A stretch of DNA of 64,000 nt from Candidatus Binatia bacterium (lineage in GTDB: Bacteria; Desulfobacterota; Binatia; DP-6), in assembly GCA_035295465.1 (NCBI GenBank), contig DATGIZ010000042.1, forward strand, positions 91,614-155,613. Reading direction: 5' to 3'. Positions 3,735 to 64,000 of the stretch are shown in pieces; positions within the stretch are counted from its first letter, which is position 1, and every line of letters starts with the position of its first letter. The notes beneath the pieces are model-generated. The model was given only the letters and a program-made list of their open reading frames with translations, had not been told where the DNA came from and made no database searches. A program made the translations under genes and the position numbers.

Positions 3735-3767
3735 CCACGCGCATCCACTACGGCTGGTGGTCGCGAG

Positions 3768-3788: not shown

Positions 3789-3793
3789 ACACG

Positions 3794-17118: not shown

Positions 17119-17429
17119 AGCCTATCCCGCAAGGGGTGAAGGCGCTGGATCCGTAGCAAGAAACTTCGTAACGGATTAGCGCACCGCCGTTCCCCGACGC
17201 ATAGCGCGCCCCCCTCCATGGTACGGGAGGGCGCGTCGGATCGCGCTGTCCTGCGGGATAACGAGGACGGAACCCTGAGCACGGACTGTACCAGCGGCGC
17301 CGCGTCGTACGCGCTGCGTTCGCCTGTGCCATCTGTGCCGCGTCGGCTCACGCGGGGCATGTTTCAGGGACGCAGCGAGCGATCAGCGCCCGGCACTCAA
17401 GACAGGCAACCGCGCCGCTACGGGGTCCC

Positions 17430-17813
17430 TCAATGGGAGCACGACGCCCAGGCTTGCTCGTGGAACGTGTTCAGCAACGCGAAGGGAATCTCCAGCGGGA
17501 GGAACACGACGTTCATAGTCATCTCCGCTGGGGTCGTGTCACGCGGTGTGTAGCCCTCGGCTCGCATGCACGCGCACAGGAGACTGAGGTCCGTCCCGAC
17601 GCCAGCGTTCATCGTACCCGAGGCCATGCCGCCACCCGCCGCGAACCCTCCGACCGCGTACGGATGCTGCGCTTGTTGGAGGCAACGGTAGTAGGTGGGA
17701 CCAATCGCGAAATCTTGTGGACGATAATCGCCGACTCGGACGGTGCTCGGGCCCAGGCAACCTGGGAGGGCGACCAAGAGCCCCAGCGAGAGCACGGAGC
17801 ATACGGAGCGCAT
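17430..17813 (-). CDS. Lipoprotein with a glycine-zipper motif (127 aa), inside a lower-GC islet.
   Basis: The signal and lipobox are MRSVCSVLSLGLLVALPGC. The Gly-zipper is GGFAAGGGMASGTMNAGVG. A GGAGG ribosome-binding site sits 8 nt before the ATG at 17813. Local GC is about 60%. Confidence 0.6.
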   Translation of the reverse strand: MRSVCSVLSLGLLVALPGCLGPSTVRVGDYRPQDFAIGPTYYRCLQQAQHPYAVGGFAAGGGMASGTMNAGVGTDLSLLCACMRAEGYTPRDTTPAEMTMNVVFLPLEIPFALLNTFHEQAWASCSH

Positions 17814-18212
17814 AGGGGGACCTCCTTTAGGCCCCTCACGCACAGAAGTGTATCCTGTTTTGGGATATCATACCAGCAACCCATAGCGTCCGGCGCCGAC
17901 TGCCATGTCGGCGCACTCGACGGCCTACCGCCGCTTCCTCGGGCGCCTCCGGCGCTCGACGCCGGCACGGTCGTCGGCCGCCACCGTGATGCGCGCGTGG
18001 AGGTCGAAGCCCTCGAGGTGCGCCTGGCACGGGCCGCGGGAGGTGACCCACGGGGCGTCGGGCTCGCGGCCGAGCTGGAAGACGCGGGCACCGGCGCGTG
18101 CGCCGAGCGCTTCCGGCTTCACGGCCCGGCCCACCGCAACGCGGGCCTGAAACGCCGCGTTCCGGCGAGGAAGATGGCTCACCCCTCACCATCAGGTGAC
18201 GCCTTTAGGAGA

Positions 18213-23017: not shown

Positions 23018-25327
23018 GTGGCCGCGCGCGGCTTCGTGCTCACGCCGACCTACCGCGTCGCGGCAGGCCGGCCCGAGGTGCATCTCTACGGCGTCCTCGA
23101 GGGCGGCGAGCCGGTGCTGGTCGTCGACGATCGGCTCGCGCCGTACTTCTTCGTACGCGCCGCCGACGCAGCCCACCTGGCGGACGCCCGGGTGGTCGCG
23201 ACGGACCTGCGCACCTTCGCCGGCGAGCCGGTGCTGCGAGTCGAGGTGGCCCTGCCGCGCGACGTCCCGCCGCTGCGCGCGCGGCTCGCCGCCGCCGGCG
23301 TGCCCACCTACGAAGCCGATCTGCGCTTCGCGTACCGGTGGCTGATCGACCGCGGCATCTCGGGCGCGTTCGCGGTGGAGGGGCGCTTCGAGCGCCGGCC
23401 CGGGGTCGGCCGCGTCTACCACAACCCCGCCCTCGACCCGGCGGTCTTCACGCCGAACCTGCGCGTGCTCGCGCTCGACATCGAGACCAGCCTCGACACG
23501 GGTGCCCTCTACTCGCTCGCGGTCGCGGGCGCCGGTGGCGAGCGCGTCTTCGTCGTCGGCCGAGCCCCGGTCGCCGGCGCCGAGGTGGTGCCCGACGAGC
23601 GCACCCTGATCGAGCGCTTCCTCGCCCACGTACGCGCCGCCGATCCGGACGTCCTCACCGGATGGAACGTCTGCGACTTCGACCTGGCGGTACTGCTCCG
23701 CTGCGCGCGGCGGGCGGGCCTGCGGCTGGCACTCGGGCGCGGGGACGACGAGCTCGAGCTCCAGCGCGACCCGGGATTCACGCGCGAGGCGCGGGCGGTC
23801 GTGGCGGGGCGGGTCGTGCTCGACGGGCTCGCGCTGCTGCGCTCGTCCTTCTACCGCCTCGAGGACTACACGCTGGAGACCGCCGCGCGGACCCTCGTCG
23901 GACGCGGCAAGCTCCTTGGCCCCGGCCACCGCGGCGCGGCGATCGAGGCGGCGTACCGGGACGATCCTGCGGCGCTCGCGGCCTACAACCTCGAGGACGC
24001 CCGGCTCGTGCTCGCCATCCTCGCGCGCACCGGCCTCGTCGAGCTGACGGTGCGGCGGAGCCTGCTCACGGGGATGCAGCTCGACCGGGTGAGCGCGCAG
24101 ATCGCGTCGGTCGACTCGCTCTACCTGCGCGCGCTGCGCGCCCGCGGCCGGGTGGCGCCGTCGGTGCAGAACGGGGCCGACGCGGCGGGCGCAATCGCCG
24201 GGGGGCTCGTGCTCGACTCGCGCCCGGGGCTCTACCGCAACATCCTCGTCTTCGACTTCAAGAGCCTCTACCCGAGCCTGATCCGTACCTTCAACATCGA
24301 TCCCCTCGTGTTCGTGCCCGCGCCGCCGTGGCCTGCCGCGCACGTGCGCACGCCGGGCGGCGCCGTCTTCCGCACCGACGAGGAGGGCATCCTGCCCGCG
24401 CTGGTCGCGCGCCTGTGGGACGAGCGCGCGCGTGCCCGCGCGGCGGGCGACACGGTGGGCGCGCAGGCGATCAAGATTCTCATGAACTCGCTCTTCGGCG
24501 TGCTCGGCTCGCCGGCCTCGCGGCTGTTCGCGCCCGCCGTGGCGAACGCGATCACCACCGCGGGGCAGCACGTGATCCGCCTCGCCGCCGCGGCGGCCGC
24601 CGCTCACGGCTGTCGCGTCATCTACGGCGACACGGACTCGCTGTTCGTCGACCCGGGCGAGGCCGACCCGGCGCGGGCGGCGGCGCGCGGGCACGAGCTC
24701 TGCGACGCGATCGGCGGTGCGGTGGGCGCGGCCCTCGAGGCGGAGTTCGGCTGCACGAGCCGGCTCGAGCTCGAGTTCGAGAAGGTGTACGCGCGCTTCT
24801 TCATGCCCGAGGTGCGCGGCGGCACGGCGGGGAGCAAGAAGCGGTACGCCGGCCTGGTGGTCGAGGACGGCGGCGAGCGCGTCGAGATCGTGGGGCTCGA
24901 GGCGGTGCGGCGCGACTGGAGCGCCGTGGCGCGGCGCTTCCAGCGTGCGCTGCTCGACCTCGTGCTCCACGACCGGCCGGTGGCCGACTTCGTGCGTGGC
25001 TTCGTCGCCGGGCTGCGCGCCGGCCGCCACGACGACGCGCTCGTCTACCGCAAGGCGCTGCGCAAGCCGCTCGCGGCGTACACCCGCACCACGCCGCCGC
25101 ACGTCAAGGCGGCGCGCAGGCAGGGCACGGAGGCGGGGCGGCTCGTCTCCTACGTGGTCACGCGCGCGGGGCCGGAGCCGGCGGACGCCACCACGGCGCC
25201 GCCCGACTACGACCACTACGTCGAGCACCAGCTCAAGCCGATCGCCGACGCGGTGCTCCGCTTCCTCGGCGGCCCCGATTTCGACGGGATCATCGGGGCG
25301 CGCCGCCAGCTCTCGCTCTTCAAGTGA
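23018..25327 (+). CDS. polB: DNA polymerase II (family B).
   Basis: The N-terminus [14 protein letters not shown]...[17 protein letters not shown] parallels E. coli Pol II (AQAGFILTRHWRDT...). It has Exo I (LALDIETS), motif A ([10 protein letters not shown]), motif B ([12 protein letters not shown]) and motif C (YGDTDS). Confidence 0.9.
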
Positions 25328-30365: not shown

Positions 30366-33300
30366 TCACCGGTAGTCGTGCTCGCCGGGCGGCGCGCCGG
30401 CCGCCTCGAGCCGTCGCAGCCGCTCGGCCCGCACGTGCGTCACGCCGTCGCGGCGCTCGAGGCGACCCGCCACCTCGATGAGCGGGGCCGTGTTGAGGAG
30501 CACGCGCCAGCGCTCGTAGAGCGGCGGGGTGAGGAACGCGTTCGCCGTCCCGGTCTCGTCCTCGAGCGTGAGGAAGCACATGCCCTTCGCCGTCCCCGGC
30601 CGCTGGCGGACGATCACGTGGCCGGCGACGCGGACCTGCCCGCCGTGCGGGACCCGGGCCAAGTCGCGCGTCGCGCACACGCCGGCGGCGGCGAGCCGCG
30701 AGCGCAGGTGCGCCATCACGTGCGGGCCCGTGGTGAGCTGCGTCGCCGCGTAGTCGGCGGCGGTCTCCTCGAGCGGGGTCATCGGCGCGAGCGGCGCCGC
30801 CGCCTCGGGGCGCACGTGGGCGAGCAGCGACGCCGGATCCCGCTCGGCGGCGGCCGCCTGCCAGAGCGCCGCGCGGCGCGCGAGCCCCAGGCCGGCGAAC
30901 GCGCCCGCGTACGCCAGCGCCTCGACCTCGTCGCGGGCGAGCTCGCCCGCCTGCGCCGCCTCGGCGACGCTCGCGAAGGGGCGCCGGGCGACGAGCCGCT
31001 CCGCCGCCTCCCGCCGCAGCCCGCGCACGTAGCGCAGGCCGAGGCGGACCGCGAGCCCGCTCTCGCCCGCCTCGAGCGTGCACTTCCACCGCGAGCGGCC
31101 GGCGTCGATCGGCCGGAAGACCACGCCGTGGCGCTCGGCGTCCTTCACCAGCGTCGCGGGGTGGTAGAACCCCATCGGCCAGCAGTTGAGCAGCGCGCAG
31201 ACGAAGGCCGCCGGATGGTGCGCCTTCAGGTACGCCGAGGCATAGGCGATCAGCGCGAAGCTCGCCGCGTGCGACTCGGGGAAGCCGTAGAGCGCGAACG
31301 ACGTGATGCTGCGCACGATGTCGTCCTGCACGGCGCCGGTGATGCCGCGCGCGGCCATACCGGCGCGCAGCCGCGCCTCGATCGCCGCCATGCGCTCGAC
31401 CGAGCGCTTGAAGCCCATCGCGCGGCGCAGCTCCTCGGCCTCGCCGCCGCTGAAGCCGGCGACCGCCATCGCGATCCGCAGGAGCTGCTCCTGGAAGAGC
31501 GGGACGCCGAGCGTGCGGGCGAGGATCGGCTCGAGCGCGGGGTGCGCGTAGGTGACCGGCGCGAGCCCGGCGCGGCGCCGGAGGTAGGGATGGACCATCT
31601 GCCCCACGATCGGCCCGGGGCGGATGATCGCCACCTCGACGACGAGATCGTAGAAGCGCGCCGGCTTGAGCCGTGGCAGCGTCGCCATCTGCGCGCGGCT
31701 CTCGACCTGGAAGACGCCGATCGTGTCGGCCTGTTGGAGCATCGCGTAGACCCTGGGGTCGTCCGGGGGGAGATGCGCGAGGTCGAGGTCGACCCCCTCG
31801 TGCGCCCGCACCAGCGGGAGCGCCTCCTCGAGCGCCGCCAGCATGCCGAGGCCGAGGAGGTCGACCTTGATGAGGCCCAAGTCGGCACAGTCGTCCTTGT
31901 CCCACTGGACGACGTGGCGGCCGGGCATCGCGGCGGGCTCGAGCGGGACGACCTCGTCGAGGCGGCCGGCGGCGATCACGAGGCCGCCGGTGTGCTGGCC
32001 CAGGTGTCGCGGCAGCCCTTGGATGCGGCGCACGAGGTCGACCAGCAGCGCGATGCGCGGCGCCGCCGGGTCGACGCCGCCGTGGCGGAGCTGCGCCGCG
32101 AGCTCGTCGTGCGCGTCGTGCCAGCCGTGCGCGCGCAGCAGCCTCGTGAGCCGGTCGACCTGCTCCGCCGCGAGGCCGAGCGCCTTGCCGACCTCGCGCA
32201 CGGCGCTGCGCGTGCGGTAGGTGACGACCGCGGCCGTCATGGCGGCTCCGCGCTCGCCGTAGCGGCGGTAGACGTACTGGATGACGTCTTCGCGGCGCTC
32301 CCCGCTCGGGAGGTCGAGGTCGATGTCCGGCCACTCCCCGCGCTCCTCGGAGAGGAAGCGCTCGAAGAGGAGGTCCATCGAGACCGCGTCGACGGCGGTG
32401 ATGCCGAGCGCGTAGCAGACCGCGCTGTTGGCGGCCGAGCCGCGGCCCTGCACGAGGATGCCGCGCTCTCGGCAGAAGCGGACGATGTCCCACACGATGA
32501 GGAAGTAGCCCGCGAGGCCGAGCCGCTCGATGACGCCGAGCTCGTGCGCGAGCTGGCGGCGGACGCGCGGGCCCGGCGGCCGCCAGCGCTCGCGCGCGCC
32601 CGCCTCCGTGAGGGCGCGCAGCCGGCCGATCGGCGTCTCGCCCGGCGGCAGCGCGGGCTCGGGGAAGCGGTAGCCCAAGTCGGCGAGCGTGAACGCGCAG
32701 CGCTCGGCGATCCGCCGGCTCGCGCGGATCCACGCGGGCCGGTCGCCGAAGAGCGCCGCCATCTCCGCGGGCGCCTTCAAGTGCCGCTCGGCGTTGGCGA
32801 GCAGCCGGCGGCCGGCGGCGTCGAGCGTCGTGCCCAGCCGGATGGCGGTGAGCACGTCGAGGAGCGGGCGCGCGCCGGGCGTGGCGTGGCGGACGTCGTT
32901 GGTGGCGACCACCGGCACGCCGTGGGCCTCGGCCAGGTCGGCGAGCCGGCGCATGGCGCGCTCCTCGGCGCGCTCGCGGTGGCGGTGGACGTCGACGGCG
33001 AGGCGGGCCGGGAAGAGCGCGCGCAGCCGGTCGAGGATCGCCGCCGCGTCGGGGCCGGCGAGCGGGCCGTCCGTGCCGCCGGCGAGGCAGAAGAGGCCGC
33101 CCGCGTGCTCTTCGAGCTGCGCCCAGTCGACCACGCCCGCGCCCTTCGGCCGTCCCATCGCGGCGTCGGTGAGCAGCCGGCAGAGGCGGCGGTAGCCGTG
33201 GCGGTCCTCGACCAGGAGGAGGATGGTGCCGCCGGCCGCGAGCGGGACCTCGGCGCCGACGAGCGCGCGCATGCCCGCGCGGCGCGCCGCCTGGAAGAAG

Positions 33301-33458
33301 CGCGGCGCGCCGTAGACGCCGCCGCGGTCGGCGAGCGCGAGCGCGTCGTAGCCGAGCGCCGCGGCGCGGTCGGCCAGGTCCTCGGGCAGCGAGGCACCGG
33401 TGAGGAAGCTGAAGGCGCTGCGGCAGCGCAGCTCGACGTAGTCAGTCGTAGACCCCAT
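30366..33458 (-). CDS. dnaE2: Error-prone DNA polymerase III alpha-subunit paralog DnaE2 (ImuC).
   Basis: The N-terminal PHP motif (YVELRCRSAFSFLTGAS), the approximately 1030-aa length, and the position downstream of imuA-imuB all fit. Confidence 0.9.
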   Translation of the reverse strand: MGSTTDYVELRCRSAFSFLTGASLPEDLADRAAALGYDALALADRGGVYGAPRFFQAARRAGMRALVGAEVPLAAGGTILLLVEDRHGYRRLCRLLTDAAMGRPKGAGVVDWAQLEEHAGGLFCLAGGTDGPLAGPDAAAILDRLRALFPARLAVDVHRHRERAEERAMRRLADLAEAHGVPVVATNDVRHATPGARPLLDVLTAIRLGTTLDAAGRRLLANAERHLKAPAEMAALFGDRPAWIRASRRIAERCAFTLADLGYRFPEPALPPGETPIGRLRALTEAGARERWRPPGPRVRRQLAHELGVIERLGLAGYFLIVWDIVRFCRERGILVQGRGSAANSAVCYALGITAVDAVSMDLLFERFLSEERGEWPDIDLDLPSGERREDVIQYVYRRYGERGAAMTAAVVTYRTRSAVREVGKALGLAAEQVDRLTRLLRAHGWHDAHDELAAQLRHGGVDPAAPRIALLVDLVRRIQGLPRHLGQHTGGLVIAAGRLDEVVPLEPAAMPGRHVVQWDKDDCADLGLIKVDLLGLGMLAALEEALPLVRAHEGVDLDLAHLPPDDPRVYAMLQQADTIGVFQVESRAQMATLPRLKPARFYDLVVEVAIIRPGPIVGQMVHPYLRRRAGLAPVTYAHPALEPILARTLGVPLFQEQLLRIAMAVAGFSGGEAEELRRAMGFKRSVERMAAIEARLRAGMAARGITGAVQDDIVRSITSFALYGFPESHAASFALIAYASAYLKAHHPAAFVCALLNCWPMGFYHPATLVKDAERHGVVFRPIDAGRSRWKCTLEAGESGLAVRLGLRYVRGLRREAAERLVARRPFASVAEAAQAGELARDEVEALAYAGAFAGLGLARRAALWQAAAAERDPASLLAHVRPEAAAPLAPMTPLEETAADYAATQLTTGPHVMAHLRSRLAAAGVCATRDLARVPHGGQVRVAGHVIVRQRPGTAKGMCFLTLEDETGTANAFLTPPLYERWRVLLNTAPLIEVAGRLERRDGVTHVRAERLRRLEAAGAPPGEHDYR

Positions 33459-34926
33459 CGACGAACCAGCGCGCCGAGTCGCATTCCCGGTAGCAGCGGT
33501 AGATGCCGCCGTCGGTGAGCTCCAGGTCCCAGTAGTCGCGCGCGAGCGGCGCCGCGCTCCACCACTGTGCGGCGATCCGCCATGGCCCCGCGGCGCCCAC
33601 GACCCGCCCGCCGAGCCCGTCGCCGCGCACGAAGGCGGGCGCGTCGCGCTCGGCGAACACCTCGATCGCGCGCGGCGGGCGCAGCGCGCGCACCACGAGG
33701 CGGCAGCAGGTCGCTGCGGCGGCGGGCGACCCCGGCGCGTCCGCCGGGGCGGGCGCGAAGGGCACGACGGCCGCCGCGCCGGGACGGTGCGTGTCGACCG
33801 GGGCGGGCGCGCCGACGCGGTCCGCGCCGCAGAGCGCGGAGAGCCGGGCGAGCGTGGTGGCGAGCCGCTCCGGCGCGGGGCCCGGAGGAACGAAGAGCCC
33901 GAGCTGGACGGGCCGCACCGTGGCGGGCACCACGACGAGCCGCACGTGCTCGACCGCCGCCCGCGGCGGCTGCGCCTCGATCGCGACGCGGAGACAGGCG
34001 AGGAGCGTCTTCCCGTCGCGCGTCGAGGCGGCGAGCGCGATCCCGCGCGCGTCGCGGCTGCGGTCGCCCAAGCCGAGCACGAGATCGACGCGCGCGCAGC
34101 CGGCGCCGGTGAGCGCGAGCCGGGCGACGGCCCGCTCGATCAGCCCGCGCAGCACGAAGAGCAGCGGCTCGAGCGCGTCGATCGGGTGCTCGAGCGTCGT
34201 CGTCTCCTCGACCGTGCCGTCCGCCGGCCGGGGAGCGAGCGGGCGCTCGTCCTCGCCGCGGGCGGCGGCGACGAGCGCGGCGCCGGCGCGGCCGAGCCGG
34301 GTGGCGACCTCGGCGCCCGGGAGGCGCGCGAGGTCGCCGAGACGCGCGACGCCCCAGCGCGCGAGCGTGGCGGTGACGTCGGCGGGCGGCGCGAGGCAGG
34401 CGAGCGGGAGCGGCGCCAGGAAGCCGCGCTCCGTCCCCGCCGGGACGACCTGTGCGCCGTCGCCGTGGAGGGCCGCCAAGCGGGCGACGGTCATGCTCGC
34501 GCCCACGCCCGCGCGCGCGGCGAGCCCGACGCGTGCCGCGCGGGCGACCAGCGCGGTGGCGAGCCCGGCTTCGCCGGCGACGAGATGGGCGCCGCCCGCG
34601 GCGTCGAGGAAGACGGCGCCGTCGGCCGCCACCTCGATCCGCTGCGCGAGCGAGGCCGCCACGTCGGCGAGCGCGAGCGCGGCCGAGCGCTCGCCGGCGA
34701 GGTCGCGCGGGCGGACGGCCACGTCGGCGGCCGCGGCGCGCGCCTGCGTGGCGGTCAGGCCGGGACGGATGCGGCGGGCCCGGGCCGCGGCCGAGACGGC
34801 GACGACCCGGGCGTGCGGCCCGCGCCCGTCGGTGAGGGCCAGCGGCCGGTCGGCGAGGTCGGGATCCGCGCGGCAGGCGGCGGCGACGGCGAGATCGGGA
34901 ACCAGGACGCAGGCGATGCGCGGCAT
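33442..34926 (-). CDS. imuB: ImuB, a Y-family polymerase-like mutasome subunit.
   Basis: It has a UmuC-like N-terminus (MPRIACVLVPDLAVAAACRADPDLADRPLALTD...). It overlaps the dnaE2 start by 17 nt and sits 12 nt after imuA. Confidence 0.85.
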   Translation of the reverse strand: MPRIACVLVPDLAVAAACRADPDLADRPLALTDGRGPHARVVAVSAAARARRIRPGLTATQARAAAADVAVRPRDLAGERSAALALADVAASLAQRIEVAADGAVFLDAAGGAHLVAGEAGLATALVARAARVGLAARAGVGASMTVARLAALHGDGAQVVPAGTERGFLAPLPLACLAPPADVTATLARWGVARLGDLARLPGAEVATRLGRAGAALVAAARGEDERPLAPRPADGTVEETTTLEHPIDALEPLLFVLRGLIERAVARLALTGAGCARVDLVLGLGDRSRDARGIALAASTRDGKTLLACLRVAIEAQPPRAAVEHVRLVVVPATVRPVQLGLFVPPGPAPERLATTLARLSALCGADRVGAPAPVDTHRPGAAAVVPFAPAPADAPGSPAAAATCCRLVVRALRPPRAIEVFAERDAPAFVRGDGLGGRVVGAAGPWRIAAQWWSAAPLARDYWDLELTDGGIYRCYRECDSARWFVDGVYD

Positions 34927-34938
34927 CGGACGCGCTCC

Positions 34939-35607
34939 TCACGCACAGGCCTGCCTCACGACGAACACCTGTCCCGACGGCCCGACCCGGCTCAGCGCAA
35001 CCGTGATCCGCGCCTCGATGCCGTCGAGCAACGCGAGCCGCCCCGGGCCGCCGCTCCAGCGCACCCGCCGCGCCGTCGTCTCGAGGGCGAGCGCCGCCCC
35101 CGATCCCGCCACCCGCTCGGGAGCGACGACGAGCAGCGTGCTGCGTGTCGCGGCCGCCGCCCGCGCGAGCCGCAACGCGCGCTCCCGCGGCACGCGCGGC
35201 GTGTCGAGGTCGAGCACGACCAGCCCGAAGCCGCCGGCGCCGAGCAGCACCTCGGCGGCCCGCAACGCGTCGAGCGGGGCAGGGGGCCGGACCCAGAGCG
35301 TGCGGTCGAGCCGCACGCCCGCGGCGGCGAGGGCCTCGGGGTCGAGCGCGTCGGCCGGGTCGACCCAGGCGATCGTCTCGCCCGCCCGCGTGGCGCTCGC
35401 CGCCACGTGCGCGGCGAGCCCCGTGCGCCCCGTGCTTCGCGGCCCCACCAGCTCGGTCATCCGCCCGCGCGGCAGCCCGCCGCCGAGCGCCCGGTCGAGG
35501 GCCGCGAGCCCGACCGGCAGGCGGCGGACCGCCCCGGCGGGCTCCGTCCCGAGGCGCAGGCTCCCCGGCCTGCCGAGCCGATCGAGGAGAACGGCGGCGG
35601 CGGACAT
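34939..35607 (-). CDS. imuA: ImuA, a RecA/SulA-fold mutasome component.
   Basis: It has the pattern LPVGLAALDRALGGGLPRGRMTELVGPRSTGRTGLAAHVAA...IAWVDPADALDPEALAAAGV and sits first in the imuA-imuB-dnaE2 order. Confidence 0.75.
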   Translation of the reverse strand: MSAAAVLLDRLGRPGSLRLGTEPAGAVRRLPVGLAALDRALGGGLPRGRMTELVGPRSTGRTGLAAHVAASATRAGETIAWVDPADALDPEALAAAGVRLDRTLWVRPPAPLDALRAAEVLLGAGGFGLVVLDLDTPRVPRERALRLARAAAATRSTLLVVAPERVAGSGAALALETTARRVRWSGGPGRLALLDGIEARITVALSRVGPSGQVFVVRQACA

Positions 35608-35640
35608 GGGGCCATGTATTTCGCCTTTTATTCGCCCCCG
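35608..35640 (-). promoter_or_regulatory. AT-rich 32-nt spacer with the tandem direct repeat GGCGAATAAAA / GGCGAAATACA between the enoyl-CoA hydratase stop and the imuA start; candidate operator/promoter (possible SOS box).
   Basis: The minus strand reads TGA CGGGGGCGAATAAAAGGCGAAATACATGGCCCC ATG. It is the only AT-rich patch in the region. TTGACG straddles the upstream stop codon. Confidence 0.35.
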
Positions 35641-36483
35641 TCAAGACCGGCGCCACCAGGGATAGAAGGGAGGCATGTCCGTGCTCGGCCGCATGGTGAA
35701 GCGGGCGGGCCGCTTCTCGAGAAAGGCGGCGACGCCCTCGCGCGCGTCGGCCGAGCGGCCCATCCAGTAGATGGCCTTCGAGTCGACGCGGTGCGCCTCC
35801 AGCGGGTGGTCGGCGCCGAGCATCCGCCAGAGGAGCTGGCGTGCGAGAGCCACCGAGACCGCCGAGGTGTTCTCCGCGATCTCGCGCGCGATCGCGCGCG
35901 CCGCGGCGAGCAGCGCCTCGGGGGCGACGACGCGGCTGACGAGCCCGGCGGCCAGCGCCTCCTCGGCCGGGAAGATGCGCCCCGTGTAGACCCATTCCGC
36001 GGCCCGCCCGATCCCCACCACCCGCGGCAAGAACCAGCTCGAGCATGCCTCGGGGACGATCCCCCGGCGGGTGAACACGAAGCCCATGCGCGCCGCCGTC
36101 GAGGCGATCCGCACGTCCATCGGCAGCGTCATGGTGACGCCGACGCCGACCGCCGCGCCGTTGATCGCCGCGATCACCGGCTTGGTCGACTCGAAGATGC
36201 GCAGGGCCACCTGCCCGCCGCCGTCGCGGTGCTCGTCGATCGTCTCGTGCGCGGAGGCGTCGAAGGTGCGCGCGCCGGCGCCGAGATCGGCTCCCGCGCA
36301 GAAGGCCCGGCCGGCGCCGGTGACGATCACCGCACGCACGGCGTCGTCGGCGTCGGCGCGGTCGAAGGCGTCGATCAGCTCGCGCATCATGCGCGCGGTG
36401 AAGGCGTTGAGCCGCTCGGGCCGGTCGAGCGTCAACGTGAGAACGCCGTCGGCCGTCTCGTAGCGGATCTGCTCGTAGGTCAT
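35641..36483 (-). CDS. Enoyl-CoA hydratase/isomerase (crotonase family).
   Basis: Crotonase motifs are present (VIVTGAGRAFCAGADL, ...KPVIAAINGAAVGVGVTMTLPMDVRIAS). A GGAGGG ribosome-binding site precedes the ATG at 36483. Confidence 0.85.
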   Translation of the reverse strand: MTYEQIRYETADGVLTLTLDRPERLNAFTARMMRELIDAFDRADADDAVRAVIVTGAGRAFCAGADLGAGARTFDASAHETIDEHRDGGGQVALRIFESTKPVIAAINGAAVGVGVTMTLPMDVRIASTAARMGFVFTRRGIVPEACSSWFLPRVVGIGRAAEWVYTGRIFPAEEALAAGLVSRVVAPEALLAAARAIAREIAENTSAVSVALARQLLWRMLGADHPLEAHRVDSKAIYWMGRSADAREGVAAFLEKRPARFTMRPSTDMPPFYPWWRRS

Positions 36484-36668
36484 GCGCCCTCCGTGACCTT
36501 CGCGAGCTCGTAGTCGAGCTCCTCGGTCGTGCCCCCGTCGTCGAGGGTGACCGTGTAGCTCCACGCGCCATTGGAGGCCGTCAGCCGCTCGCCGACCACG
36601 CGCCCGCGCCGCCCGTCGCGCAGCACGACTCGGTCGCCGATCTCGATGCGTCCCGCCGGTGGTTGCAT
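36480..36668 (-). CDS. Small protein (62 aa), DUF1918-like, translationally coupled (ATGA) to the enoyl-CoA hydratase.
   Basis: The sequence is MQPPAGRIEIGDRVVLRDGRRGRVVGERLTASNGAWSYTVTLDDGGTTEELDYELAKV. Its stop overlaps the hydratase ATG. Confidence 0.5.
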   Translation of the reverse strand: MQPPAGRIEIGDRVVLRDGRRGRVVGERLTASNGAWSYTVTLDDGGTTEELDYELAKVTEGA

Positions 36669-36677
36669 GCGCGGAGC

Positions 36678-37079
36678 CTACCTGCCCACGGCCTCGACGT
36701 GAAACGAGCGGATCGCGGGGTCGTTCGGCAGCGCGACCACGAACGTCGCCGTGCGGCCGGGCGGCACCGCCTGTGGCGTCGGCAGGGCCTCGGCGCGCGC
36801 CACCACCGCGCCGTGGGCGTCGAGCCCCTCCACCCACACCGCGAGGTCGCGGCTCGCGCGCGAGCCGGTGTTGTGCACGGTCCCCTCGACGTAGAGCTCC
36901 CGGCCGTCCGCGCTCGGCGTCTGCTCGAGGTCGGCCCCGATCGTGAAGTCCGCGGTGGTCGACGGCGGGAGCGGCTGCTCGCCGAGCGGCGGGGCGGGAG
37001 CGGGGGGCGGCGCCGGCGGGGGCCTCGAGACCGGCGCGCAGCCCGCGAGGAGCAGCGCCGCCGCGACGAGACCCCTCAG
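36678..37079 (-). CDS. Lipoprotein with a C-terminal beta-sandwich-like domain, possibly FxLYD-like; the start codon is uncertain (possible CTG).
   Basis: The lipobox is LVAAALLLAGC and a Pro-rich linker follows. The domain reads ...DGRELYVEGTVHNTGSRASRDLAVWVEGLDAHGAVVARAE...ATFVVALPND. There is no in-frame ATG/GTG/TTG near the signal peptide. A GGAGG lies 7 nt before an in-frame CTG that overlaps the MaoC stop. Confidence 0.45.
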   Translation of the reverse strand: MRGLVAAALLLAGCAPVSRPPPAPPPAPAPPLGEQPLPPSTTADFTIGADLEQTPSADGRELYVEGTVHNTGSRASRDLAVWVEGLDAHGAVVARAEALPTPQAVPPGRTATFVVALPNDPAIRSFHVEAVGR

Positions 37080-53524: not shown

Positions 53525-54991
53525 ATGGCCGCCGAGACCCGCATCGTCCTCCAGCAACGGCTGTCGCAGCAGCTCGTGATGACGCCGCAGCTCCGGCAGG
53601 CGATCAAGATCCTGCAGGTGTCGCGCGCGGAGCTCGAGACGCTCATCGACCAGGAGCTGGCGGAGAACCCGGTTCTCGAGGAGAACGCCGACGAGAAGGC
53701 CGAGGCGGAAGCCGAGGTCCCCACCGTCGACGGCAACGGCACCGAGGAGTACCAGACCGCCGCCGACGGCGAGCACGAGGCGCAGAGCGTCGGCGAGATC
53801 GACTGGAAGGAGTTCGCCGAGAACTACGCGAACGACATGCACGGCGGTACGGGCGGCAGCGCCCCCGACGACGACGACGAGCGGCGCCCCGCGCTCGAGA
53901 ACATCCTCGTCAAGCGCACGCTGCTTCCCGAGCACCTCATGTGGCAGCTCCGGCTCACCGACCTCTCCGCCGAGGAGCGCGAGCTGGGCGCGCTCATCAT
54001 CGGCAGCCTCGACCCCGACGGGTACCTCACGCTCTCGCTCGAGGAGATCGCCTTCCTCGCCAACACCTGGCCGGACATCGCCGCCGTCGAGCGCGTGCTG
54101 CGCCGGATCCAGGAGTTCGACCCGCCCGGGGTCGCGGCGCGCGACCTCGCGGAGTGCCTGCTCACGCAGCTGCGCCAGCTCGGGCTCGATGCGGATTCGT
54201 TGCCTGCGCGCATCGTCCGCGACCATCTCGCGATGCTCGAGAGCCGCCGCTTCGATCGTCTAGCGCGCGATCTCGGCGTCGCGATGGAGCAGATCGCCGA
54301 GGCCACGAAGATCATCTCGGTGCTCGAGCCCAAGCCCGGCCGCGACTTCGGCGACGGCGAGACCCGCTACGTGACGCCCGACGTCTACGTGCACAAGGTC
54401 GGCGACGAGTACGTGGTCACGCTCAACGAGGAAGGGCTGCCGCGGTTGCGCGTGTCGCAGTTCTACCGCCGCATGCTCGGCGGTGAGGGGTCGGCCGAGG
54501 CCCGGGGCTACATCCAGGAGAAGATGCGGGCCGCCGCCTGGCTCATCAAGTCGATCCATCAGCGCCAGCGCACGCTCTACATGGTCACCTCGAGCATCGT
54601 GAAGTTCCAGCAGGAGTTCCTCGACAAGGGCGTGGCGCAGCTCCGGCCGCTGGTGCTCAAGGACGTCGCCAACGACATCGGGATGCACGAGTCGACCGTG
54701 AGCCGCGCGACGGCGGGCAAGTACGTCCATACCCCCCAGGGCACGTTCGAGCTCAAGTACTTCTTCACCTCGAGCCTCCGTAGCGGGCACGGCGAGGAGG
54801 TTTCGGCAGAGAGCGTGAAGGAGAAGATCCGCACGATCATCGCCAAGGAGGACCCGAAGAAGCCGCTGAGCGACCAGTACATCGCCGAGATGCTGGCCAA
54901 GGAGCAGATCGACATCGCGCGGCGCACGGTCGCGAAGTACCGCGAGCTGATGGGGATACTCCCGTCCTCGAAGCGCCGCCAGGTGTGCTGA
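53525..54991 (+). CDS. rpoN: RNA polymerase sigma-54 factor.
   Basis: It has an N-terminal Gln/Leu-rich activator-interacting region, an acidic linker, and the C-terminal RpoN box ARRTVAKYRE. Confidence 0.95.
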   Translation: MAAETRIVLQQRLSQQLVMTPQLRQAIKILQVSRAELETLIDQELAENPVLEENADEKAEAEAEVPTVDGNGTEEYQTAADGEHEAQSVGEIDWKEFAENYANDMHGGTGGSAPDDDDERRPALENILVKRTLLPEHLMWQLRLTDLSAEERELGALIIGSLDPDGYLTLSLEEIAFLANTWPDIAAVERVLRRIQEFDPPGVAARDLAECLLTQLRQLGLDADSLPARIVRDHLAMLESRRFDRLARDLGVAMEQIAEATKIISVLEPKPGRDFGDGETRYVTPDVYVHKVGDEYVVTLNEEGLPRLRVSQFYRRMLGGEGSAEARGYIQEKMRAAAWLIKSIHQRQRTLYMVTSSIVKFQQEFLDKGVAQLRPLVLKDVANDIGMHESTVSRATAGKYVHTPQGTFELKYFFTSSLRSGHGEEVSAESVKEKIRTIIAKEDPKKPLSDQYIAEMLAKEQIDIARRTVAKYRELMGILPSSKRRQVC

Positions 54992-55019
54992 CGCATCCCT
55001 CGGCGGAGGGGAGGGGGCG

Positions 55020-55571
55020 ATGCAGATCAGCGTCACGTTCCGGCACGTCGACCCCACGCCGGCGCTCCGCGCCTACGCCGAAGAGAAGCTCGAACGGGTG
55101 AAGAAGTACCTTCGCCGGCCGGTCGACGCCCACGTCATCCTCGGCGTCACCAAGGAGCGGCACACGGCGGAGATCACCCTCCAGGCGGACCACGTGACGA
55201 TGTTCGCCAAGGAGGAGACGCACGACCTCTATTCGGCGATCGACCTCGCCGTGGACAAGCTCGAGCATCAGGCGCAGAAGCTCAAGGCGAGGCGGCGCGA
55301 TCACAAGGACCAGGCGAGCGTGCGCTCGGGCGAGCTGCCGACGGTCACCACGACCGTGCTCTCGGTCGCCCGCGGTGCGCCGACGGTCGTTCGCACGCAA
55401 CGCCTGCCGGCGCGGCCGATGCTCGTCGAGGAGGCGCTCGACGAGCTGGCCGCGTCCCGCGAGGAGTGCGTGGTGTTCGTCAACGCGCGGAGCCAAACGC
55501 TCGCGGTCCTCTATCGGCGCAAGGACGGCGACTACGGGTTGATCGAGCCGGAGGGCTTCAGCGGACCATGA
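55020..55571 (+). CDS. hpf: Ribosome hibernation-promoting factor (long HPF).
   Basis: The sequence MQISVTFRHVD… is HPF/YfiA-like and carries a C-terminal extension. Confidence 0.85.
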   Translation: MQISVTFRHVDPTPALRAYAEEKLERVKKYLRRPVDAHVILGVTKERHTAEITLQADHVTMFAKEETHDLYSAIDLAVDKLEHQAQKLKARRRDHKDQASVRSGELPTVTTTVLSVARGAPTVVRTQRLPARPMLVEEALDELAASREECVVFVNARSQTLAVLYRRKDGDYGLIEPEGFSGP

Positions 55572-56029
55572 AGATCGGCGACATGCTCACGGAAGACCTG
55601 GTGAGCGCCGCGCTGGCGGGCCGGACGAAGAGCGACGTGATCGAGGAGCTGGCGGCCCTCGTGGTGCGCCGCCATCCGGAGATCGACCAGGCGCGCCTGG
55701 TGCAGGCGCTCGAGGACCGGGAGCGGCTCAACTCGACGGCGCTCGGCGAGGGGGTCGCGATCCCGCACGGCAAGCTGCCGATGGTCGGGCAGGTGGTGGC
55801 CGCCTTCGGCCGCAGCGTGGCCGGCGTGGACTTCCAGTCGCTCGACGGCAAGCCGACGCACCTCTTCTTCCTGCTGGTGGCGCCCGAGGGGTCCGCGGGC
55901 GCGCACCTGAAGGCCCTCGCACGCATCTCGCGCCTGCTGAAGGACGAGGGCTTCCGGCGTCGCCTGATGGAGGCCGCGGACGCGCACGAGCTCTACACCA
56001 TCATCCGCGACGAGGACGCGCGCTATTGA
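55568..56029 (+). CDS. ptsN: PTS IIA-Ntr (PtsN).
   Basis: It has the EIIA-fructose-type fold with an active-site His (…GVAIPHGK…). It has an ATGA overlap with hpf. Confidence 0.85.
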   Translation: MKIGDMLTEDLVSAALAGRTKSDVIEELAALVVRRHPEIDQARLVQALEDRERLNSTALGEGVAIPHGKLPMVGQVVAAFGRSVAGVDFQSLDGKPTHLFFLLVAPEGSAGAHLKALARISRLLKDEGFRRRLMEAADAHELYTIIRDEDARY

Positions 56030-56982
56030 CGGTGACGGTGCGCGCGCTGCTCGAGGCGGCCGGGCCGGTGCTCGGGCTCCGGCTCGTGGCGGGCGGGCGC
56101 GGCCTCGAGCGGTCGATCGCGCAGCCGCGGCTGCAGCAGCCCGGCCTCGCGCTGGCGGGCTTCCTGCCGCAGCTCCACCCGGACCGCATCCAGGTCCTCG
56201 GCAACAGCGAGGTCGCCTACCTGGGGACGCTGCGACGTGCCGAGGCGCGGGCGGCGGTGGAGCGCGTCGCACGTGCGGGTGTGGCGTGCTTCGTCGTGAC
56301 CAACGGCGCGCGCGTGCCGGCGTTCGTGCGCGCCACGGGGGACGCGGCGCGGGTGGCGGTGCTGGCGTCGCGGCTGCGCACCGCGGACTTCATCCGCCTC
56401 GCCGCCGCGTGGCTCGAGGAGCGGCTCGCGCCCGAGACGTCGCTCCACGCCAACCTCGTCGAGGTCGAGGGGGTCGGCGTCCTCATCCGCGGCGCCAGCG
56501 GCATCGGCAAGAGCGAGGCCGCGCTCGACCTGCTCGCGCGCGGCCAGCGGCTCGTCGCCGACGACGTCGTCCTCGTCCGCCGCATCTCGCCCACCGAGCT
56601 GCGCGGCCGTGCCGCCGCGTTGCTGCGGCACCACATGGAGATCCGCGGCCTCGGGGTGATCGACGTCGAGACGCTCTTCGGCACGCTCGCCACGCTCGAC
56701 GAGCGCCGGATCGACCTGGTGGTCGAGCTGGTGGAGTGGTCGGAGGGCGTCGATCGCCTCGGGCTGGTCGAGGAACGGATGACGTTGCTCGACACGACGC
56801 TCCCGCTCGTGCGCCTCCCGGTCCGGCCGGGCCGCAGCACCGCGCTGCTCATCGAGACCGCGGCCCGCAACCACCTGCTGCGGGCCCGCGGGCTTCACAG
56901 CGCGCGGGAGTTCGTGCTCCGCGTGGACCGGGCGGCGGCCGGAAGCGGGCGCCGGCGCCGCGCGAGCTGGCGGAGCGCATGA
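56026..56982 (+). CDS. hprK: HPr kinase/phosphorylase.
   Basis: It has a P-loop (GASGIGKSEAALDL). The start is uncertain: TTG at 56026, or GTG at 56032 or 56038. Confidence 0.85.
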   Translation: MTVTVRALLEAAGPVLGLRLVAGGRGLERSIAQPRLQQPGLALAGFLPQLHPDRIQVLGNSEVAYLGTLRRAEARAAVERVARAGVACFVVTNGARVPAFVRATGDAARVAVLASRLRTADFIRLAAAWLEERLAPETSLHANLVEVEGVGVLIRGASGIGKSEAALDLLARGQRLVADDVVLVRRISPTELRGRAAALLRHHMEIRGLGVIDVETLFGTLATLDERRIDLVVELVEWSEGVDRLGLVEERMTLLDTTLPLVRLPVRPGRSTALLIETAARNHLLRARGLHSAREFVLRVDRAAAGSGRRRRASWRSA

Positions 56983-57842
56983 GGCGCCCGCTGCACGTGC
57001 TCGTGGTCACGGGGATGTCGGGCTCGGGCAAGAGCACCGCGCTGCACGTGCTCGAGGACCTCGGCTTCTACTGCATCGACAATCTGCCGGTGGCGCTGGT
57101 GCCGCGCTTCCTCGAGCTGTGGGAGAGCTCGCGCGAGGAGGTCCGGCGCGTCGCGTTGGGCATCGACGTGCGCGCGGGGCGGTTCCTGCTCGACTTCCCC
57201 CGCGTGTTCGCCGAGCTGCGCGCGGCGGGCGCCGTCGTCGAGGTCCTCTACCTCGAGGCCAACGACGACGTGCTCGTGCGCCGCTTCAGCGAGACCCGGC
57301 GCCCGCACCCCGCCGCCGAGGGCGGCTCGGTCGCCGACGGCATCCGCCGCGAGCGCGACGCGCTGCTCGCCCTGCGCGAGGTCGCCGATCGCATCCTCGA
57401 CACGAGCGCCTTCACCACCCACGAGTTGCGCGCGGCGTTGCGCGACCTCGTCGAGCGTCCCGACGCGGGCACGATGACGGTGGCTCTGGTCTCCTTCGGC
57501 TACAAGCACGGCCTGCCGAGCGACGCCGACCTCGTGATCGACTGCCGGTTCCTCCCCAACCCCTTCTTCGTCGAGGAGCTGCGGCACCGTACCGGGCTCG
57601 ACACGAGCGTCGCAGACTGGGTGCTGCGGCGCGACGACACGCAGGAGTTCCTCGACCGCGTCGACGCCCTGCTGCTGTTCACGCTGCCGCGCTACCAGCG
57701 CGAGGGGAAGAGCTACCTCACGATCGCGTTCGGCTGCACGGGGGGGCGCCATCGCTCGGTGGTGCTGGTCGAGGAGCTGCGCCGCCGGCTCGAGGAGGCC
57801 GGGCAGCACGTCCTCGTGCGCCATCGCGACGTCGAGCGCTAG
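56979..57842 (+). CDS. rapZ: RNase adapter protein RapZ (YhbJ).
   Basis: It has Walker A (VVTGMSGSGKSTAL) and the C-terminal pattern …GCTGGRHRSV… It has an ATGA overlap with hprK. Confidence 0.85.
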   Translation: MRRPLHVLVVTGMSGSGKSTALHVLEDLGFYCIDNLPVALVPRFLELWESSREEVRRVALGIDVRAGRFLLDFPRVFAELRAAGAVVEVLYLEANDDVLVRRFSETRRPHPAAEGGSVADGIRRERDALLALREVADRILDTSAFTTHELRAALRDLVERPDAGTMTVALVSFGYKHGLPSDADLVIDCRFLPNPFFVEELRHRTGLDTSVADWVLRRDDTQEFLDRVDALLLFTLPRYQREGKSYLTIAFGCTGGRHRSVVLVEELRRRLEEAGQHVLVRHRDVER

Positions 57843-57906
57843 CGCGGCCGCGCGCGCCGCCGCGGCTTGCTCGCCCCCCCGTGGGGAAGGTAGGGTTTTC
57901 GCCGGG

Positions 57907-58326
57907 ATGGTCGGGATCGTCGTCGTCGGCCACGGCCGTCTGGGCGCGGAGATGGTCCAGGCGCTCGAGAGCGTGCTCGGCCCGGTCGAGGCGATGGAGG
58001 CCGTCGTCACGCTCGCGGGCGAGCCACCGGAGGACATCGCGGCGCGCATCCGCGCGGCGATCGCGCGCGTCGAGAGCGGCTCGGGCGTGCTCATCCTCAC
58101 CGACATGCTGGGCGACACGGCCACCAACCAGAGCGTGGCGGTGGCCCGGCAGTCGCCGGGTCGTGTGGAGGTGGTCGCCGGCGTCAACATGCCGATCCTG
58201 ATGAAGCTCGCCACCGCCCGCGACGACATGGACGCGCGGGCGCTGGCCGGCTTCCTCAAGCGCTACGGCCAGGAGCACATCTGCTGGGCGACCGAGCCGC
58301 CACGGCCGGCGGCGCCCCAGACCTGA
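57907..58326 (+). CDS. PTS EIIA component, mannose/fructose family.
   Basis: The sequence MVGIVVVGHGRLGAEMVQALESVLG… has the active-site His10. Confidence 0.75.
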   Translation: MVGIVVVGHGRLGAEMVQALESVLGPVEAMEAVVTLAGEPPEDIAARIRAAIARVESGSGVLILTDMLGDTATNQSVAVARQSPGRVEVVAGVNMPILMKLATARDDMDARALAGFLKRYGQEHICWATEPPRPAAPQT

Positions 58327-58334
58327 GGCCGGCC

Positions 58335-58622
58335 ATGGGCGTCGAGCGGCGTGAGCGGCGCGCCACCCTTGTCATCCGCAACCGCCTGGGGCTGCACGCG
58401 CGGGCGGCGGCGCTCCTGGTGCAGACCGCGAATCGCTTCGAGGCCGAGATCACGGTCAGCAAGGACGGGCAGACCGTGAACGGTCGCAGCATCATGGGGA
58501 TCATGATGCTCGCCGCGGAGCAGGGCAGCGCCATCGAGGTCGTGAGCAGCGGGCCACAGGCCGAGGAGGCGCTGAGCGCGATCCGCGCGCTGGTGGAAGC
58601 CCGCTTCGAGGAGCCCGAATAG
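58335..58622 (+). CDS. ptsH: Phosphocarrier protein HPr.
   Basis: It has His15 (…[12 protein letters not shown]…) and the seryl-phosphorylation-region G(R)S motif, [11 protein letters not shown]. Confidence 0.85.
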
Positions 58623-58719
58623 CGCGCGGACGCTGTGCGGCGCGCGGCTTGCCGGGGCCGACGCCATTCGGCTATACGAATCGGTCGCCCTGCCCGCCCG
58701 GCGAGGAGGTCCACCCCCC

Positions 58720-59904
58720 ATGCTCAAGGACTACGTCTTCACGTCAGAATCCGTGAACGAGGGACACCCCGACAAGGTCTGCGACCAGATCTCGGACGCG
58801 GTGCTCGACGCGCTGCTCGCGCAGGATCCCGACAGTCGGGTGGCGTGCGAGTCGTTGATCAAGACCGGCCTGGTCGTGATCGCCGGCGAGATCACCAGCC
58901 AGACCAAGGTCGACTTCGGCGAGATCGCGCGGCAGGTGCTCCGGGACATCGGCTACACCACGGCGGAGAGCGGCTTCAACTGCGAGAGCTGCACGGTCGT
59001 GACCGCCATCGAGCGGCAATCGCCCGACATCTCGCAGGGCGTCACCGAGGGCCAGGGGTTGTTCAAGGAGCAGGGCGCCGGCGACCAGGGGATGATGTTC
59101 GGCTACGCGTGCGACGAGACCCGCGAGTACATGCCGTTCGCGATCTACACCGCGCACCGCATCGGCCAGCGCCTCGCCGAGGCGCGGCGGTCGGGCGCGC
59201 TGCCCTTCCTCCTCCCCGACGGGAAGTGCCAGGTGTCGGTCGAGTACCGTGATGGCCGCGCGGTGCGCGCGCGGACGGTCGTCGTCTCGTCGCAGCACAA
59301 GGCGGACGTGAGCCACGCGACGCTGCGCGAGGCGATCGTCGAGGAGGTGGTGAAGCGGGTCGTGCCGCCGGAGTTCCTCGACAAGGACACCGTCTACTAC
59401 ATCAACCCCACGGGGAAGTTCGTCGTCGGCGGCCCGCAGGGTGACTGCGGGCTCACCGGGCGCAAGATCATCGTCGACACCTACGGCGGCTACGGGCGCC
59501 ACGGCGGCGGGGCCTTCAGCGGCAAGGACCCGAGCAAGGTCGACCGCAGCGCCGCCTACATGGCGCGCTACGTCGCCAAGAACGTGGTCGCCGCCGAGCT
59601 CGCGGCGCGCTGCGAGGTGCAGGTGGCCTACGCGATCGGCGTCGCCGACCCCGTGTCGGTCCTGGTCGACACGTTCGGGACGGGAGCGATCCCCGACGAG
59701 CGGATCGGCGCGCTGGTGCGCGAGCTGTTCGATCTCAAGCCCGCGTCGATCATCCGCACGCTCGGCCTCAAGCGCCCGATCTACCAGCGCACGGCCTCTT
59801 ACGGGCACTTCGGCCGCGTCCCCGACGGCCCGTACTTCACCTGGGAGCGCACCGACCGGGTCGACGACCTGCGCGCGGCCGCCGGCCTCGGGCGCCGCGG
59901 CTGA
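58720..59904 (+). CDS. metK: S-adenosylmethionine synthase.
   Basis: Motifs: …[21 protein letters not shown]…, …[12 protein letters not shown]… and …[28 protein letters not shown]… A GAGGAGG ribosome-binding site is present. Confidence 0.95.
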
Positions 59905-59939
59905 CCCGGGGGCACCCGGATCGAGGGATGGAGGGACCA

Positions 59940-61420
<1,481 letters not shown>

Positions 61421-61429
61421 GGCGCCCGC

Positions 61430-61855
61430 GTGCGTGTGCGGCCGGCGGTCTCCGCGGTCATCCTGAGCGCGGACGGCGTGCTGCTCCAGCGGCGCGACGA
61501 CAACGGGCTCTGGGGCCTCCCGGGCGGCGCCGTCGAGCCGGGGGAGTCGGTGCGCGAGGCGCTGGCGCGCGAGGTGCGCGAGGAGACCGGCCTCGAGGTC
61601 GAGCCGGTGCGCCTGATCGGGGTGTACTCGGCGCCCGAGCATCACCAGATCGTCACCTACCCCGACGGCAACGTGACCCACTACGTCAGCACGGTGCTCG
61701 AGTGCGTGATCGTCGGCGGGCGGCTCGCCTGCGGGCCCGAGTCGCTCGCGCTCGCGTGGCACGATCCCGACGCGCTCGGCGAGGAGGTCATGCCCGTCGT
61801 CCGCATCCGCATCCGCGACGCGCTCGCCCGCGAGGCCGCGGCGTTCGTGCGCTAG
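61430..61855 (+). CDS. NUDIX hydrolase.
   Basis: The Nudix box is [26 protein letters not shown]. The start is GTG. Confidence 0.75.
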
Positions 61856-63656: not shown

Positions 63657-64000
63657 CGGTAGCGCCGCAGCAGCCCTACCACGACGCCGCGCACGACGAC
63701 GTCCTCGGCCGCGGCCACGATCGGCGCGAGGCGCTCGTTGGCGGGCACGAGGCGCACGCGCCCGCCGCGCTCGCGGTAGAGGCGCTTCACGGTGGCCTCG
63801 CCGCCCACGAGCGCGACGACCGTCGCGCCGTCGGGCGCGTCGGCCCGCGCCTCCACCACCACCAGATCGCCGTCGAGGATGCCGTCGCCGATCATCGAGT
63901 CCCCGCGCACGCGCAGCGCGAAGGTCTCGCCGCGGCCGAGGAGCTCCTCGGGGAGCGCCACCGTCTCGCGCACCTCGACGGGCTCGACGGGCGCGCCGGC
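63653..64000 (-). CDS. lexA: LexA repressor, C-terminal S24 peptidase domain; the N-terminal DNA-binding domain lies beyond the window end.
   Basis: The frame is open to base 64000. It reads …AGAPVEPVEVRETVALPEELLGRGETFALRVRGDSMIGDGILDGDLVVVEAR…KRL… The Ala-Gly cleavage site, the Ser nucleophile (GDSM) and the catalytic Lys region are all visible. Confidence 0.75.
   Translation of the reverse strand, partial: AGAPVEPVEVRETVALPEELLGRGETFALRVRGDSMIGDGILDGDLVVVEARADAPDGATVVALVGGEATVKRLYRERGGRVRLVPANERLAPIVAAAEDVVVRGVVVGLLRRYR

Follow-up and report, generated by a model that had tools for sequence, protein, structure and literature searches.

A candidate direct-repeat LexA operator overlaps the probable promoter of an imuA-imuB-dnaE2 cassette in Candidatus Binatia

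In the genome of an uncultured Candidatus Binatia bacterium, the short spacer between an enoyl-CoA hydratase (ECH) gene and imuA is very probably the imuA-imuB-dnaE2 operon's own promoter, overlapped by a Binatia-type LexA operator. We analysed a 64,000-nt stretch of this genome, referred to here as the window. LexA is most probably the protein that binds the repeated element in the spacer, because the same repeat occurs in the genome's own lexA promoter and in 15 related lexA promoters and lies upstream of an error-prone polymerase cassette. An earlier note on this DNA had proposed the repeat as a candidate LexA operator, and its presence at these lexA promoters and also at 15 related imuA loci strengthens that proposal. 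Binding of LexA would be expected to repress transcription of the imuA operon. A literature search found no published description combining Binatota and LexA, and the imuA site appears to extend the known direct-repeat LexA boxes by a new sequence variant, undescribed for the uncultured phylum Binatota.

The cassette and the elements upstream of it occupy the following positions in the window.

35641..36483, minus strand: enoyl-CoA hydratase (ECH) gene upstream of imuA, with its stop codon inside the -35 hexamer
35639..35644, minus strand: -35-like hexamer TTGACG, which includes the ECH stop codon TGA (35641..35643)
35608..35640, minus strand: ECH-imuA spacer, 33 nt, without a Shine-Dalgarno sequence
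35619..35636, minus strand: candidate LexA operator, GGCGAATAAAAGGCGAAA on the imuA sense strand and TTTCGCCTTTTATTCGCC on the plus strand
35631..35636, minus strand: half-site 1, GGCGAA, promoter-proximal
35620..35625, minus strand: half-site 2, GGCGAA, 11 nt downstream of half-site 1
35605..35607, minus strand: imuA start codon ATG
34939..35607, minus strand: imuA-like gene, first of the cassette, encoding a RecA-fold protein of 222 aa (NF033429, PF00154)
33442..34926, minus strand: imuB, encoding a Y-family polymerase-like protein of 494 aa (PF00817, IMS)
30366..33458, minus strand: dnaE2, encoding an error-prone DNA polymerase of 1030 aa (NF004225, 1281 bits against a cut-off of 939)

Read on the minus strand from 35640 to 35608, the spacer is CGGGGGCGAATAAAAGGCGAAATACATGGCCCC. 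Its 33 nt correct the 32 nt given earlier, and the window as a whole is 74.2% GC rather than roughly 72%. The two GGCGAA units (35636..35631 and 35625..35620) are 11 nt apart and thus separated by one helical turn, and TTGACG (35644..35639) straddles the upstream stop by including the ECH TGA, both as previously described. Half-site 2 overlaps the position expected for a -10 element. A simple sigma-70 and terminator scan of 35300..36000 returned nothing, and no canonical -10 was found there. Also as claimed, imuA lacks a Shine-Dalgarno sequence: none of the GGAG/GAGG type is present in the 20 nt before its ATG, and about 60% of the neighbouring genes have one.

The spacer had been called the sole AT-rich patch of its surroundings. 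This holds locally, since it exceeds every other 33-mer from 30 to 42 kb in AT content, but patches at ~17.1-17.9 kb and at 53.3 kb equal or exceed it. The most AT-rich patches of the window (17146..17178 and 17843..17875) fall in a lower-GC stretch between two genes (17119..18212), which contains a 137-aa ORF (17430..17843, minus strand) with a lipoprotein-like signal (LVALPGC) and has no Rfam match. An Rfam scan of the whole window gave zero matches, and a reading of the spacer as an RNA element was dropped. The window has one tRNA-Glu, distant from the imuA spacer.

The exact repeat GGCGAA-N5-GGCGAA (35620..35636, minus strand) occurs once in the window, compared with 0.03 occurrences expected by chance. 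For the alternative reading of the same letters as GAAT-N7-GAAA, the looser form GAAY-N7-GAAM matched at chance level, with two matches against 1.44 expected in the window; it is not significant by itself, and we replaced it with the 6-mer repeat. Allowing two mismatches in GGCGAA-N5-GGCGAA was uninformative (15 matches against 14 expected).

The gene calls, namely a RecA-fold ImuA-like protein, ImuB, DnaE2 and an enoyl-CoA hydratase, were all borne out. The ImuA-like protein scores 74.7 bits with the NF033429 ImuA model and so falls below the 150-bit cut-off of this curated model; it matches the RecA fold equally well (79.5 bits; 75 bits with PF00154). The first cassette gene is termed ImuA-like here on the basis of its position and fold. 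NCBI protein VKW76_15780, which comes from a metagenome-assembled genome of Candidatus Binatia, has exactly the same sequence (100% identity). The three genes follow one another on a single strand as imuA, imuB and dnaE2, and their junctions are short or overlap. Since the upstream neighbour of the cassette is the ECH gene and lexA is ~28 kb away, the cassette does not have the lexA2-imuA-imuB-dnaE2 form. Adjacency of ECH and imuA is restricted to the window and its closest relatives, at 83% identity (locus L104), and is absent from two other related loci (L108 and L109).

Two further features of this neighbourhood were observed. Between the MaoC dehydratase and ECH genes are two small ORFs of 66 and 62 aa without a Pfam match (36484..36900), and the pair is kept in all relatives that have this neighbourhood (L001 1730..2128; L104 8719..9110). 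About 5 kb from dnaE2 lies a homologue of PolB, a family-B DNA polymerase (~23020..25327, plus strand), assigned by its 86% nucleotide identity to a PF00136 gene of L104.

The window ends inside lexA, and the genes and site concerned are placed as follows.

63653..64000, minus strand: 3' part of lexA (S24 peptidase domain), with the rest of the gene and its operator beyond the window
61852..63656, minus strand: two genes after lexA, encoding a pyrimidine 5'-nucleotidase (HAD) and a HemW-type radical SAM protein, with overlapping stop and start codons
virtual 64261..64278 (L112 3562..3579): site in the lexA promoter, just beyond the window

As stated earlier, the lexA promoter is outside the window, which encodes only the C-terminal part of the protein (63653..64000). 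Contig L112 matches window positions 53653..64000 at 100.000% identity over 10,348 nt and extends 3.8 kb past the window end. Another contig, L003, proved to come from a strain 98.7% identical to the window rather than from the same genome; the window is continued exactly by L112. In this genome, the promoter of lexA reads GCATTGCTTTTCGCCTTCCGTTCGCTCACGATGGGGCCGC-GTG. It contains TTCGCC-N5-TTCGC, the imuA repeat in the opposite orientation. The site itself, TTTCGCCTTCCGTTCGCT, scores 27.7 bits with the weight matrix described below, directly follows the -35-like hexamer TTGCTT and lies 15-32 nt upstream of the GTG start.

The LexA protein (197 aa, L112 3594..4187) is predicted to be canonical and cleavable. 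It scores 188 bits with TIGR00498 (cut-off 111) and has a wHTH and an S24 domain, and its sequence shows AAG (Ala-Gly) for cleavage together with GDSM and VKR, which contain the catalytic Ser and Lys. The order lexA-(HAD)-HemW is kept in relatives L113 (10001..11762) and L115 (10001..12393), the counterpart in L112 being 3594..5988. The HAD and HemW genes are probably co-transcribed with lexA and would thus share its operator, and because the gene order is kept in relatives they may be inducible by DNA damage. Divergent from lexA, and sharing the intergenic region that contains the operator, is a gene for a 287-aa protein without a Pfam or NCBIfam match (L112 2623..3486). In L113 (8210..9898) and L117, an ATP-dependent DNA ligase gene occupies this position, and the gene for the unmatched protein comes after it.

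We then compared lexA promoters across relatives. Among GTDB species representatives, the LexA loci nearest to that of the window have titles naming Candidatus Binatia, Binatota or Binataceae, and 15 further lexA promoters of such Binatia-type genomes contain TTCGCC-N5-TTCGC(C/T). In these 15, a -35 element (TTGCGT or TTGACT) precedes the repeat and a -10-like element (CATGAT or TATATT) follows it. A motif-free test found exact 6-mers repeated at a spacing of 11 in 12 of the 15 lexA promoters, and in 0-1 at the other spacings from 7 to 16. From 14 distinct lexA-promoter sites we built a weight matrix, leaving out the imuA site; the training sites score 24-34 bits. These sites were selected by a regular expression composed after the imuA site was known, which makes the matrix mildly circular, but this is offset because the motif-free spacing test agrees with it.

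When both strands of the window were scanned with this matrix (128,000 positions), the imuA spacer (35619..35636) scored 26.1 bits and the runner-up 11.6. The tail probability at 26.1 bits is 1.5e-9 per position, corresponding to 2e-4 hits expected in the window. Weaker matches of 15.6-17.7 bits (e.g. GGCGAAGAGTTTGCGAAA) were seen at three lexA loci (L014 4101..4118, L015 4102..4119 and L021 4027..4044), where they precede a gene convergent with lexA by ~40 nt; in L021 this gene is histidine-kinase-like. Secondary matches also lie between ruvX and an M23 peptidase gene in L115 and L116; taken together, the secondary matches of these five loci score 14-18 bits. None of them has a counterpart in the window's lineage.

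The repeat is likewise conserved upstream of imuA. Scanning metagenomes with ImuA yielded 15 loci that could be used, with protein identities of 49-72%. Eleven have distinct sequences and several are near-duplicates, so that counts over these loci overstate the number of independent observations. At all 15, the best matrix match of the entire locus (17-26 bits, the next being at most 11) lies 4-47 nt upstream of imuA, and this is equally so in the three longer loci L104, L108 and L109. The common layout is TTGACR, 2-5 nt, GGCGAA-nnAAA-GGCGAA-A, 7-11 nt, and ATG or GTG. Neither half-site departs from GCGAA in any of 14 imuA upstream sequences (14/14), and 13-14 of them keep the AAA preceding half-site 2.

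The earlier note had regarded TTGACG as a -35-like hexamer, and conservation of TTGACR at a fixed distance from both the repeat and the start codon supports this assignment. Of 14 related regions upstream of imuA, 13 contain TTGACR or TTGACC. This hexamer precedes the repeat by 2-5 nt (10 nt in L093), and its end is separated from the start codon by 28-33 nt. The block is intact both where a co-directional ECH gene lies upstream (the window and L104) and where the upstream gene is divergent (L108 and L109). The latter case argues that imuA has its own promoter and that the spacer is no passive coupling gap, contrary to the alternative, raised in the earlier note, that the patch is a mere translational-coupling spacer.

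In two of the imuA loci, L093 (1978..1995) and L100 (550..567), the identical 18-mer TTTCGCCTTTTATTCGCC is present in inverted orientation, ~8 nt closer to the imuA start. This is a natural inversion of the putative operator. The lexA and imuA promoters likewise have the repeat in opposite orientations, and the -35 element stays on the same side. Such inversion between promoters fits an operator for a protein and argues against a sigma-factor element.

If the repeat were instead the operator of a regulator other than LexA, then a second damage-responsive repressor or activator would control both lexA and the imuA operon. Analogues of such a second regulator are PafBC in Actinobacteria and DdrO in Deinococcus, and lexA promoters of other phyla can hold its sites, as they do for mycobacterial PafBC. 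A sequence by itself cannot name the protein bound to it, and recA of three relatives, described below, is without the motif, which would fit this explanation. We nevertheless consider it unlikely. The repeat is the sole conserved non-promoter block across the 16 lexA promoters, and to our knowledge lexA autoregulation is near-universal. The half-site core TTCG/CGAA is also the core of the Firmicutes LexA box, and the LexA alpha3 helix is Firmicutes-like, since the Binatia helix SLATVHKHL is similar to that of B. subtilis LexA, which we take to be SSSTVHGHL. Furthermore, alpha3 and the repeat change together from clade to clade, SLATVHKHL occurring with TTCGCC and SLGTVQNYL with TTACGCA. No candidate second regulator is linked to the loci examined. 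These data point to LexA as the probable binding protein.

A second explanation is that the repeat serves the promoter only, either as an element for RNA polymerase or an alternative sigma factor or as a UP-like or spacer feature rich in AT, without a repressor. The repeat does lie between the -35 and the expected -10 position, and with no canonical -10 present, part of it could act as an unusual -10. However, promoter elements are orientation-dependent, and the repeat is inverted between lexA and imuA as well as between the window and L093/L100. Moreover, an 11-bp direct repeat of a 6-mer is unlike any -35/-10 pair, and the motif is found at a single place in each 5-20 kb locus examined, where a general promoter element would recur. 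We therefore regard this explanation as very unlikely. Least probable of all is that the spacer is a passive gap for translational coupling or read-through in which the repeat arose by chance. In the window and its closest relatives, ECH and imuA do run in the same direction, separated by 33 nt that contain no terminator. This reading is nonetheless hardly credible: chance would produce 0.03 copies of the exact repeat and 2e-4 hits at the matrix score, the repeat and TTGACR are conserved where the upstream gene is divergent or different, and the motif also occurs in the genome's own lexA promoter.

Under the favoured reading, a promoter overlapped by a LexA operator, RNA polymerase would use TTGACG as its -35 element. 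GGCGAA-N5-GGCGAA would provide two half-sites, one helical turn apart, that fill the promoter spacer and the -10 position. A bound LexA dimer would then exclude RNA polymerase and keep the error-prone polymerase off. Upon DNA damage, RecA filaments would trigger self-cleavage of LexA, for which the Ala-Gly site and the catalytic Ser and Lys are present, and the operon would be derepressed. With the start codon at this distance past the -35 element and no Shine-Dalgarno sequence, the transcript would be leaderless.

We put the chance that the imuA mRNA is leaderless, starting at or just before the ATG, at about even. This possibility is suggested by the missing Shine-Dalgarno sequence and by a start codon placed as far from the -35 element as a transcription start usually is. 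For both the promoter and the leaderless transcript, the evidence is the conserved TTGACR and its spacing, there being no canonical -10.

The earlier note had suggested looking for the motif at other SOS genes, and the outcome was divided. The motif is present at the genome's own lexA but absent from recA in three relatives and from the polB region. Specifically, no other site in the window exceeds 11.6 bits, the region upstream of the PolB homologue included, and the regions upstream of recA in L116, L117 and L119 have no motif, with a best score below 7 bits. These recA genes were reached through their pgpA neighbours in the cluster pgpA-cinA-ligT-recA, and they start at 12979 in L116, 12689 in L117 and 12436 in L119; the last of these loci is ~83-87% identical to L003 at the nucleotide level. 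The three recA upstream regions have in common a promoter-like block, CTGGAGA-N17-TA(C/A)A(G/C)T. The sole RecA-like match of the metagenome scan, L103, was set aside as a locus from outside Binatia; its box is the actinobacterial CGAAC-N4-GTTCG.

Because recA in the three relatives and the polB region are without the motif, the regulon looks small, consisting of the lexA operon and the error-prone polymerase cassette and leaving out recA. Small regulons without recA have been reported in Acidobacteria, some Deltaproteobacteria and Opitutae (PMC4951493). The same work has lexA and imuA-imuB-dnaE2 as the recurrent core of SOS regulons and as their two most constant members (PMC4951493).

LexA boxes of the direct-repeat kind are already well known from Alphaproteobacteria (GTTC-N7-GTTC), Acidobacterium capsulatum, Patescibacteria and Balneolaeota (PMC4951493, PMC7739468, PMC9578287). 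Like the Binatia repeat, the alphaproteobacterial GTTC-N7-GTTC box, which is also found in Acidobacterium capsulatum, is a direct repeat with 11 bp from TTC to TTC (PMC4951493, PMC9578287). Both occur in either orientation and at the promoters of lexA and imuA-imuB-dnaE2. They differ in that the Binatia repeat conserves GCC 3' of TTC and varies in the 5' base, whereas the alphaproteobacterial box conserves the 5' G. The half-sites in the window read ATTC and TTTC rather than GTTC, and the site is thus not a GTTC box. A scan seeded by a few peptides ranked 80 LexA loci as closest, and Alphaproteobacteria appears in none of their titles.

Patescibacteria (Sanchez-Osuna 2017, cited in PMC7739468) and Balneolaeota (TTACACATATTTTWTACATA; PMC7739468) also have non-canonical direct repeats like that of Binatia. 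Their boxes were inferred from the promoters of lexA and translesion polymerases, and their regulons, as seems to be the case in Binatia, are small and centred on error-prone polymerases (PMC7739468). The Binatia half-site TTCGCC differs from those of both groups, Patescibacteria being compared here through lexA promoters that we fetched. These patescibacterial promoters contain TTTCGG-N5-TTTCGG, with the same 11-bp period as in Binatia. The Firmicutes and Actinobacteria box, CGAAC-N4-GTTCG, has the CGAA/TTCG half-site core in common with the Binatia box. Its half-sites are however inverted and 4 bp apart, whereas those of Binatia are direct and one helical turn apart. GAAC-N4-GTTC is absent from the imuA spacer and from the genome's own lexA promoter.

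We extended the comparison to lexA upstream regions of other clades (L022, L027, L029, L030, L032, L035, L036, L039, L073, L026, L031, L041, L054, L070, L038 and L045). Desulfuromonadales and Bdellovibrionales lexA promoters contain TTACGCA-N4-TTACGCA, again with an 11-bp period. TACGAA was found in those of Oligoflexia and TTACGCC/TATCACC in those of Thermoanaerobaculia, and Patescibacteria also have GTTC-N7-GTTC. Each clade with such 11-bp-period lexA repeats has a distinct LexA alpha3 helix. It is conceivable, although we would sooner bet against it, that the Binatia box is a branch of one large family of direct-repeat LexA operators with an 11-bp period and a T(T/A)CG core. The proposed members are Binatota, Desulfuromonadales, Bdellovibrionales, Oligoflexia, Thermoanaerobaculia and Patescibacteria, and possibly the alphaproteobacterial box. 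If this is true, head-to-tail binding by LexA would be an old and widespread mode inherited by many phyla. Direct-repeat LexA boxes have been presented as a rarity that arose independently several times (PMC7739468).

The cassette itself can be compared with the imuA-imuB-dnaE2 cassettes of Caulobacter, Verrucomicrobia and Pseudomonas lexA2 (PMC4951493, PMC8072749). It has the same gene order, and its candidate SOS box likewise lies at the first gene. Unlike the lexA2 cassettes, it contains no internal lexA, the single lexA lying ~28 kb away. It also departs from the known cassettes in that its ImuA has a RecA fold and fails to reach the cut-off of the curated ImuA model, its promoter abuts a metabolic gene and its mRNA, with the even odds given above, would be leaderless.

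LexA boxes vary by clade, and reading an SOS regulon from a genome requires prior knowledge of its box. For Binatia, the imuA and lexA sites together yield a testable 17-18 bp motif, TTCGCC-N5-TTCGCC. A promoter of its own upstream of imuA would correct the impression, given by annotation, that the cassette is co-transcribed with a fatty-acid gene. For the debated question of how dimeric repressors evolve from inverted to tandem half-sites, the Binatia box would be a further example with direct repeats. For the organism, the motif predicts a minimal regulon made up of the lexA operon and the error-prone polymerase cassette, without recA.
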